From NCBI GenBank assembly GCA_031963405.1, contig JASSUJ010000001.1:1547802-1611801 (forward strand): a DNA stretch of 64,000 bases, written 5' to 3'. This DNA is from Mycoavidus cysteinexigens. Its GTDB lineage: Bacteria > Pseudomonadota > Gammaproteobacteria > Burkholderiales > Burkholderiaceae. Position numbers and translations under genes: made by a program. The notes beneath the pieces are model-generated. The model was given only the letters and a program-made list of their open reading frames with translations. It did not search any database and was not told the origin of the DNA. Below, in pieces: positions 11,765-46,538 of the stretch (position 1 is its first letter; the number at the start of each line of letters is the position of its first letter).

Positions 11765-11788
11765 CGAAGTAGCGTATGAACTCACGAA
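11765..11788 (-). promoter_or_regulatory. PIP/hrpII-type box TTCG-N16-TTCG
   Basis: The minus strand reads ttcgtgagttcatacgctacttcg (TTCGT-N15-TTCGT). It is about 138 bp upstream of the ATG at 11627 and in the gene's orientation. Confidence 0.6.
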
Positions 11789-13572: not shown

Positions 13573-13596
13573 CGAAATGGCAGATGCTTAAGCGAA
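13573..13596 (-). promoter_or_regulatory. PIP/hrpII-type box TTCG-N16-TTCG
   Basis: The minus strand reads ttcgcttaagcatctgccatttcg (TTCGC-N15-TTCGT), about 236 bp upstream of the ATG at 13337. Confidence 0.55.
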
Positions 13597-24296: not shown

Positions 24297-24320
24297 CGAA
24301 TATTTTTGCGTTAAAACGAA
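24297..24320 (-). promoter_or_regulatory. PIP/hrpII-type box TTCG-N16-TTCG
   Basis: The minus strand reads ttcgttttaacgcaaaaatattcg (TTCGT-N15-TTCGC), about 74 bp upstream of the ATG at 24223. Confidence 0.6.
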
Positions 24321-44236: not shown

Positions 44237-44788
44237 ATGAAGACAAAGCGCCTTTTTATATTGATGTGGTTGGTTGGCGGGTTAGCTTGCACGATTGGCC
44301 TTTATGCCAGCTGGCGCTTTTTTAAAGAGCCGTTTAAACAAACCAGACCAAGCACGAATCTTGCCGCGTTGTGGCAGGCTAAGCTGCCCGACCAAGTGGG
44401 CCGTATGCAGTCGCTTGCTCAATATCGAGGCCGCCCGCTTGTGGTGAATTTTTGGGCTGCATGGTGTGAGCCTTGTGTTGAAGAGATGCCCGTGCTATCC
44501 GCTTTGCAAAAGAAATACGCAGCTAAAGGCGTTCATTTTATTGGTATCGCCGTTGACTCTGCGACTAACGTCGCGCAATTTATGCAAAAAGTAAAAGTAG
44601 ATTACGCGCTTTATAGCGCTGGCTATGGAGGACTAGCGCTTGCGCGTGCACTGGGTAATACGCAGGGCGGGCTGCCCTTTACCGTATTAATCGATGCTTC
44701 AGGCAAGATACATAGCACGCTGCTTGGCAGTGTTACGCGTGATGAAAAGCGGTTAAACGCTTTGTCAGAGCAACTGGATGCGTTGTAA
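44237..44788 (+). CDS. TlpA-family thiol:disulfide oxidoreductase (thioredoxin fold)
   Basis: It has an N-terminal TM/signal anchor and the redox motif VVNFWAAWCEPCVEEMP. Confidence 0.8.
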   Translation: MKTKRLFILMWLVGGLACTIGLYASWRFFKEPFKQTRPSTNLAALWQAKLPDQVGRMQSLAQYRGRPLVVNFWAAWCEPCVEEMPVLSALQKKYAAKGVHFIGIAVDSATNVAQFMQKVKVDYALYSAGYGGLALARALGNTQGGLPFTVLIDASGKIHSTLLGSVTRDEKRLNALSEQLDAL

Positions 44789-44820
44789 TTTGGTGAGGGT
44801 TTTACCCATTTGCTTTTATG

Positions 44821-45602
44821 TTAGTGCCTATGCTGTGCACGCCGACCTTCTTGATTCCCCAAAATCTTCGCCGCTTCTGACTTAATAGCTTGGATTGCCT
44901 CTTCTACAGGCTTCTGTCCAAGATTATTTCTCACACTTTTTGCGGCGCTCAACGCCGTTTCCCCTTTTATCCCCACTACCCCCTCTATATCAACTAGCGT
45001 GGGGTTTGCGCCTTTGAATTTCACCGCGTGTTCTGCTGTAGGGTCATTTAGGGTCTCTGTTAGGGTGTGCAGCGCCGTTTTGCCATCCCGTTGCCCTGTT
45101 TTTCCAGCTTATCGAATGCTGCTGCTGAGATATGCAGTGCCGTTTTACGATCTTGATCAATTAATTTGGGATCCGCGCCTTTCTCGAGCAAGAGCGTGAT
45201 GACTTGGGCTGCATGCTTAGCTGCGGGGCCACGTAAGGCTTTTGCTACGATATTCAGTACTAGCTGCCCCTCTTTATCATGCTGATTAAGTTCTATTCCG
45301 CCCTTAGACAATAGCTCGTTGATGACTGTTGCAGCGTGCTCCGCTCCAGGGCCATTTAGGGCTTTTGCCGCGACATGCAGTGCTGTTTTACGATCGTGAG
45401 TAGTGAGTTCGGGCTCTTGATCGTTTCTGAGCAGTAGCGTGATTACCTCTGTCGCCTGCTGTGCTTCCTGGCCGTCTAGCAATATGGTTGCGAGATGCAA
45501 CGCCATCCTACGGTTTTGATGAGCTAGCTCTGGGGTTGTGCGGTCCGCGAGCAATTGTTGGATTTCTGCTAGCGTTGGTTTTACTTGCTCAATATCAGGC
45601 AT
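44821..45602 (-). pseudogene. Ankyrin-repeat protein gene interrupted by a frameshift at a T5/A5 run
   Basis: Two adjacent ORFs (45060-45602 and 44821-45024, whose frame is open upstream to about 45110) both encode ANK-like repeats (KTALHVAAKALNGPGAEHAATVINELL; KTALHTLTETLNDPTAEHAV). Adding one A to the A5 run (plus-strand T5 at 45099-45103) gives a single 260-codon ORF that reads ...DKLEKTGQRDGKTALHTL.... Confidence 0.7.
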
Positions 45603-45763
45603 ATCTATGATTATCCGCTCAGGGTTTACCTTCTTCGCTAGCTCAATAAACCGTTCCTTGCTTCACGTAGCTTGACGGTAGTTGGAAGATAGTCTGGAAT
45701 CTTTGAAATAAAATGAGTTCTAGTAAAGTAAGGCAATCGTTCAAATGCTTTCGTAGGGTGATA

Positions 45764-45787
45764 CGAAATTTTGCTTGAGCACGCGAA
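45764..45787 (-). promoter_or_regulatory. PIP/hrpII-type box TTCG-N16-TTCG
   Basis: The minus strand reads ttcgcgtgctcaagcaaaatttcg (TTCGC-N15-TTCGT), about 162 bp upstream of the ankyrin gene ATG at 45602. Confidence 0.55.
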
Positions 45788-46085
45788 AAATGTTTTGAGG
45801 ATAGAAGGTGTTTTTTTATTTTGGCTTTAATTAAGGGCTGATGAAGTTAACATGCACAATTTGCAAGCAGCGTAAAACAAATTTAGGGGAGAGCTAAATA
45901 AGTTGGGCGATGCGGAGTATTCTGGCTGTGCAGGCCGTACTGCTTGCCTTAGCATTCTTTGCGCGTAATTTATGCAGAGCTTTGTTAAGCAAAATTTACG
46001 TTTAATTACTTTTAAGCTACACAAAAACTGGACAATTTCTCTCTTTCAACGGTAAAGTTCGCCCATTTTTCAGAAATTGACTTAT

Positions 46086-46538
46086 ATGATTTCACGCATA
46101 TTGGTATTGCACGGACCCAATCTCAATTTGCTTGGGCAGCGCGAACCGGAAATATATGGTCATTTGACGCTGGATGAGATTAATCAAAAGCTCATTGCGC
46201 ACGCTCAGGCTAAGGGCGTGGTGTTGGAAACCTTTCAAAGTAATTGCGAAGGCACGTTAATTGACCGCTTACATCAAGCGCATCAGGATGGCGTCGAGTT
46301 TGTGATTATTAATCCGGCGGCCTACACGCACACAAGTGTGGCCCTGCGCGATGCGCTAATGGGTGTGGATACGCCGTTTGTGGAAGTGCATTTATCAAAT
46401 ATTTACAGTCGTGATGCCTTTCGGCATAAATCGTTTTTCTCCGACCTAGCGCAAGGTGTAATCTGTGGCTTTGGTTGGCAAGGTTATTTGTTTGCGCTCG
46501 ATTTCGCTTTGAACACCGCTACCGCTAAATCGCGTTGA
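46086..46538 (+). CDS. aroQ: Type II 3-dehydroquinate dehydratase
   Basis: [36 protein letters not shown] and [12 protein letters not shown] are present. I chose the ATG at 46086. Confidence 0.9.

Follow-up and report, generated by a model that had tools for sequence, protein, structure and literature searches.

Two consecutive minus-strand open reading frames, 45060-45602 (180 aa; ORF-A) and 44821-45024 (67 aa; ORF-B), follow a PIP/hrpII box in a stretch of 64,000 nucleotides from Mycoavidus cysteinexigens (the window, whose positions are used throughout unless a genome coordinate is given), and they raise the question of whether they represent one gene that has been broken, an intact gene miscalled at a homopolymer, a switchable gene, or two separate genes. 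A sequence-only reading of the window had listed both ORFs at these positions, where they are indeed found, and had proposed that they are parts of one ankyrin-repeat effector candidate. The genome is represented by a single contig of 2,444,062 bp with 46.6% GC. Our preferred explanation, to which we give odds of roughly two in three, is that this is a real, PIP-box-driven candidate effector gene with ankyrin-like repeats, genuinely broken and decaying in this genome. The features of the locus are listed in Table 1.

Table 1. Features of the ankyrin-like locus, in window positions; the paralogue is given in genome (G000) coordinates.
Feature	Position	Strand	Description
tlpA-like	44237-44788	+	Left neighbour of the 1.22-kb insertion
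Lineage-specific insertion, 1.22 kb	44789..46009		Gene and promoter, between tlpA-like and aroQ
ORF-B remnant, -1 frame	44821..45108	minus	Repeat 4, C-terminal capping repeat, stop codon
18-nt in-frame deletion site relative to soil relative	45016..45017	minus	Removes most of helix 2 of repeat 4
Truncated repeat 3	45088..45152	minus	65 nt instead of 120-123; contains the frame break
A5 run (plus-strand T5)	45099..45103	minus	One more A joins both frames
ORF-A	45602-45060	minus	180 aa; N-terminal cap, three complete 40-41-residue repeats, truncated repeat 3, 12-residue out-of-frame tail
-10-like hexamer TACTTT (YANNNT)	45725..45730	minus	33 nt after second TTCG, 32 after TTCGB
PIP/hrpII box TTCGC-N15-TTCGT (TTCG-N16-TTCG)	45764..45787	minus	Fits TTCGB-N15-TTCGB; 161 nt from ATG
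aroQ	46077-46538	+	Right neighbour of the 1.22-kb insertion
Closest paralogue in the genome (L130), 499 aa	G000:C1:1216532-1218031	minus	Intact, own upstream PIP box

The relationship between the two frames is consistent with a single ancestral gene. The downstream frame remains open upstream of ORF-B, as had been pointed out, and extends to 45108, directly after a TAA at 45111-45109, with both frames open across 45063-45108. The first start codon available to ORF-B is a GTG at 45024 that sits inside helix 2 of repeat 4, making ORF-B implausible as an independent gene. Addition of a single A fuses the frames as proposed, reading ...DKLEK-TGQRDGKTALH... over 168 + 92 = 260 codons, and within the 20 nt that must contain the shift no homopolymer other than the A5 run reaches 4 nt. 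The successive ALH motifs are spaced by 120, 123, 120, 65 and 120 nt, and the frame change is located inside the single short repeat unit (45152-45088). This unit, repeat 3, aligns to the first half of a normal unit only, with helix 2 and the connecting loop missing. Its shortfall relative to the 120-123-nt units is 55-58 nt (i.e. 3n+1), so that one deletion gives both the truncated repeat and the frameshift, and from the repeat spacing a single deletion of ~55 nt would account for the break as well as an A6-to-A5 slip would. Alternatively, repeat 3 could have been a half repeat of 66 nt in the ancestor and have lost a single A. Since the repeat with the break is short by 55-58 nt, the homopolymer there may be incidental.

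Both ORFs had been described as encoding ankyrin-like repeats, and for ORF-A this holds at the level of Pfam thresholds, its scores against the gathering cut-offs being 40 versus 27.3 bits for Ank_2, 31.2 versus 21.1 for Ank and 27.0 versus 27.0 for Ank_5. ORF-B alone has no Pfam match, yet it carries the same DGKTALH...AEHA unit, and its DNA is 82% similar to repeat 1 over 28 nt. The unusual conserved insert reported within the repeats is real, with 39 residues aligning to 31 positions of the Ank model, and the repeat period of 120-123 nt corresponds to 40-41 codons rather than to the canonical 33 residues of ankyrin. In a search of 1.84 billion representatives ORF-A has 6,073 matches with E <= 0.001, the best-scoring of them in large multi-repeat proteins. 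A single-sequence AF2 model of ORF-A (mean pLDDT 75.5) contains three stacked helix pairs with lengthened helices, with pLDDT values of 80-91 for most of residues 11-140, two dips to ~70, and values below 55 from residue 150 onwards. Foldseek comparison of the model with the PDB finds no match at E <= 0.001; the best are designed helical repeat proteins (E >= 0.028) and not natural ankyrins, and because these nearest folds match only weakly we refer to the repeats as ankyrin-like. The ORF-B part, folded separately from ORF-A and likewise from its single sequence, gives a model with a pLDDT of 53 that lacks a helix at the site of the repeat 4 deletion (see below).

The TTCG-N16-TTCG box noted upstream of the gene is present at 45787-45764, separated from the ATG by 161 nt, and genome-wide counts show it to be a regulon motif. 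There are 96 TTCG-N16-TTCG sites, of which 50 are intergenic, and 45 of these 50 are oriented towards a gene start within 400 nt, compared with 4-12 intergenic and 1-4 gene-oriented boxes for each of eight control spacings (12-15 and 17-20); spacing-16 boxes are thus enriched more than 10-fold in oriented intergenic positions. The fifth position of the TTCG half-sites is never A (0/90 in the 45 promoters). In 31 of them, the locus promoter included, a YANNNT hexamer begins at an offset of 31-33 nt from the box; at this locus the offset of 32 nt from TTCGB falls within the 30-32 nt expected for such promoters. Divergent PIP boxes precede an HrpB1_HrpK-family gene and a sctU-sctV operon, in which SctV scores 902 bits against TIGR01399 (cut-off 692) and SctU 359 bits against TIGR01404 (cut-off 358), so that the type III secretion operons themselves carry the box. 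The genome also encodes an AraC regulator of 476-481 aa that shares 64% identity with a protein recorded for Mycoavidus cysteinexigens and, along its entire length, 38-44% with proteins of 476-480 aa from Burkholderia, Trinickia, Paraburkholderia and Mycetohabitans; the Burkholderia and Mycetohabitans homologues are presumably HrpB. Assignment of the locus promoter to the HrpB/HrpX (PIP/hrpII) regulon is thus well supported by its sequence. Scans for terminators and sigma-70 promoters give nothing exceeding shuffled background.

Membership in this regulon suggests that the gene was originally a candidate effector for injection into the fungal host, and we infer HrpB-dependent expression, secretion and host targeting on this basis. 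Secretion of ORF-A is nevertheless uncertain, as its N-terminus has no Ser and carries the acidic residues Asp3 and Glu5; under the usual composition rules an N-terminus without Ser and with acidic residues at positions 3 and 5 is atypical for Hrp-type signals. Within the window there are PIP boxes at 11765-11788, 13573-13596, 24297-24320 and 45764-45787, and six of ten sampled genes behind PIP boxes have no Pfam match.

The gene and its promoter occupy a position at which related genomes have none. The interval between tlpA-like and aroQ is 1.29 kb here and ~110 nt in the two nearest congeners, and the two genes are also adjacent, with a gap of ~190 nt, in 17 outgroup Burkholderiales loci, nearly all from Burkholderiaceae. 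From this adjacency in congeners and outgroups, the segment 44789-46009 is a derived insertion specific to the lineage. No second copy or repeat of it was found elsewhere in the genome, and on these grounds a mobile-element origin is rejected; recent foreign origin is likewise rejected on composition, the gene having 50.4% GC and its flanks 50.8%. The spacer between the PIP box and aroQ contains a minus-strand 65-aa ORF (45827-46024) that is probably spurious.

Relatives carrying the same insertion are represented in environmental DNA. Three separate soil metagenome studies yielded short contigs that are 95-99% identical to parts of 44805-46043, one of which (X3 record 8) spans the right insertion junction, whereas no RNA run was found to contain the locus. 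Since these contigs match both the insertion and its aroQ-side junction, close relatives with the same insertion occur in soils. Another contig (X2 record 6) has no difference listed within the PIP box, and the PIP box-aroQ spacer is the part most diverged from the soil sequence (11 differences in 222 nt). Within the gene there are four SNPs relative to the soil contigs, one synonymous and three non-synonymous and conservative, which are too few to gauge selection.

The most informative of these contigs (X1 record 2; 265 nt) covers 44805-45051 with two mismatches and has 18 extra nucleotides behind 45016. With these 18 nt, repeat 4 reads AEHAVK-LIKPLLS-KGANP, in which a canonical helix 2 leads into the KGA(N/D)P turn, as compared with AEHAVKFKGANP in this genome. 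Because a ~99%-identical soil contig has 18 in-frame nucleotides that restore helix 2, the genome carries a second lesion in which most of helix 2 of repeat 4 has been lost, and with this deletion in repeat 4 even a fused 260-codon ORF would encode a damaged protein. Being in frame, the 18-nt deletion is also compatible with ongoing selection on a frame that is translated. The soil contigs stop at 45051 and resume at 45156, and the A5 run falls in the gap (45052-45155); they show no intact allele of repeat 3.

Searches for an intact counterpart found no ORF-A orthologue in 5.8 billion proteins, in GTDB species genomes or in 1.84 billion representatives, and no orthologue of the ORF-B part in 5.8 billion proteins; all of these searches returned generic ANK proteins only. 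JGI metagenome contigs likewise contain no intact allele or orthologue, the matches being two loci with 42% identity over 57 aa. The closest relative within the genome is the 499-aa paralogue (29% identity, E 1.3e-8), which shares the long-period ANK-like repeats and the C-terminal capping repeat but differs from the broken gene in having all of its repeats at full length, an extra N-terminal region of ~300 residues and a Ser-rich start. Its residues 79-110 resemble an F-box at a score below threshold (E 0.0044; 17.3 bits versus a cut-off of 20.5), and the protein could by this analysis be an F-box/ANK effector comparable to Legionella AnkB. We tentatively entertain the idea, although we think it has the odds against it, that the two genes belong to a small Mycoavidus-specific family of 40-residue-period ankyrin-like type III effectors undergoing host-driven on/off allelic loss. 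Such a family would have an intact member with an F-box-like segment and soil relatives that keep the repeat 4 helix 2 which this strain has lost, and would represent natural on/off allelic variation of an injected protein in wild fungal-endosymbiont populations.

Three explanations had been offered for the split, namely recent pseudogenisation, a sequencing error at the homopolymer, and slippage-based switching, and the first of these fits best. The possibility that the true sequence is A6 and the gene an intact 260-codon ORF is raised by the fact that one base in the A5 run mends the break, by the single 2.44-Mb contig, which suggests long reads, and by the position of the A5 site between the matching soil contigs, where no read passes over it. 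We compared 250 ORFs, each 200 aa or longer and drawn from 400 kb of the nearest congener, with this genome, in which 208 have an orthologue. Of these orthologues, 200 can be aligned without a change of frame along 90% or more of their length and the other eight differ at over-called N-termini only, such that no frameshift was found in 240,849 nt containing 1,011 homopolymers of 5 or more. The 95% upper bound on error is ~0.3% per run and less than 1% for the gene, and an A6 product would in any event retain a half-length repeat 3 and a repeat 4 without helix 2, a pattern of decay and not of one miscall; we thus regard assembly error as improbable. Still less probable is that phase variation, transcriptional slippage or -1 ribosomal frameshifting at A5 provides some full-length protein. 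Re-pairing of tRNA-Lys on A-AAA in the -1 frame is conceivable, and -1 is the frame that continues the repeats. Known contingency loci and transcriptional slippage sites, however, have tracts of ~7 or more, whereas this one is only A5; G-GAA-AAA lacks the X XXY YYZ pattern of a slippery heptamer; the 91 nt starting at the site have a less stable predicted fold than shuffled sequences (-13.5 versus a mean of -18.9 kcal/mol, z = +1.92); and the resulting product would still be structurally damaged. That the two listed ORFs are native independent genes in tandem is the least credible proposal of all, in that the first start codon of ORF-B falls midway along a repeat helix, the repeats keep their register from one side of the break to the other, and the paralogue holds the same C-terminal repeat within one protein.

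A stronger competitor, albeit one that we still judge unlikely, is that the truncation is functional or adaptive, with the 180-aa three-repeat protein being the relevant product, still expressed and secreted, and ORF-B a leftover. In keeping with this, the PIP box and the -10-like hexamer are intact, with no box difference listed against the soil relative, the repeat region is modelled with good confidence, and the exact 180-aa sequence has been called as a protein (one entry, NCBI-sourced, in a 15-billion-protein collection). On the other hand, the collections searched yielded no orthologues for a test of selection, and the few known SNPs are mostly non-synonymous. The solenoid moreover ends in an uncapped half repeat followed by 12 nonsense residues with pLDDT below 50, and the N-terminus is atypical for type III secretion signals, as described above.

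We thus favor the reading in which a genuine gene has been broken and is decaying, and the following series of events would account for it. An ankyrin-like alpha-solenoid gene would have been inserted between tlpA-like and aroQ in this lineage, driven by a HrpB/HrpX (PIP/hrpII-box) promoter of the Hrp-type T3SS regulon. The frame would then have been lost inside repeat 3, either through a ~55-nt (3n+1) deletion or through loss of 1 nt at the A run, and the part downstream of the break would since have lost 18 nt and with them helix 2 of repeat 4. The product that could still be made would be at most 180 residues, comprising the N-terminal cap, three intact repeats and a 12-residue nonsense tail, and ORF-B would be an untranslated remnant.

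Ankyrin-repeat effectors of intracellular bacteria include AnkB and AnkX of Legionella, AnkG of Coxiella and RipY of Ralstonia, and the ANK genes of Wolbachia are strain-variable and often truncated. The Mycoavidus gene resembles the former in having ANK-scoring repeats in an endosymbiont genome with at least 20 ANK ORFs, and the latter in decaying by frameshift and deletion. It differs from such effectors in its repeat period of 40-41 residues rather than 33 and in the absence of a catalytic or F-box partner domain; it scores just 32.8 bits with the NCBIfam AnkG model (cut-off 500), and its presumed route is the T3SS, unlike ANK effectors that are delivered by type IV systems. The genome as a whole is rich in ANK sequences, with 50 Ank_2 matches in ~20 ORFs of its 2.44 Mb, including a 2,734-aa open frame (e.g. 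around 245 kb). Few of the Ank_2 ORFs have PIP boxes, and most may therefore use another secretion route.

The closest known systems are the type III effector genes with hrpII (HrpB) or PIP (HrpX) boxes, including btl of Mycetohabitans (PMC11261895, PMC6913199); the comparison set spans Ralstonia, Xanthomonas, Acidovorax, Burkholderia and endofungal Mycetohabitans, in the last of which the hrpII box has likewise been used to flag btl effector genes (PMC11261895). Shared features are a TTCGB-N15-TTCGB box less than 200 nt from the start codon with YANNNT ~32 nt downstream, a genome with an Hrp-type T3SS that carries the box on its own operons and a 476-481-aa AraC regulator, and the status of an orphan present in one lineage only and inserted between housekeeping genes. 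Unlike those genes, the Mycoavidus gene is broken and has an N-terminus without the usual Ser-rich composition, its regulation and secretion are predicted from sequence, and the host is a Mortierella-type fungus rather than the plant of plant-associated systems.

By itself the locus is of minor importance, since broken accessory genes are expected in host-restricted bacteria and the switching mechanism finds no support. It nonetheless adds a single entry to the effector repertoire known for Mycoavidus-type endosymbionts, which live in Mortierella-type soil fungi. It shows that insertion between housekeeping genes brings in members of the PIP-box regulon that are later lost, and it illustrates that alleles in a less decayed state can be recovered from soil metagenome fragments. 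Of more use than the gene itself are the ~45 PIP-box promoters across the genome, most of the sampled ones fronting Pfam-less genes. Four paralogous PIP promoters cluster at G000 1351064-1355975. There are also two SctV/FHIPEP genes in the genome, one in the Hrp-type cluster with PIP boxes (G000:C1:2066562-2068520) and the other at 1144066-1145976, and thus probably two type III systems.
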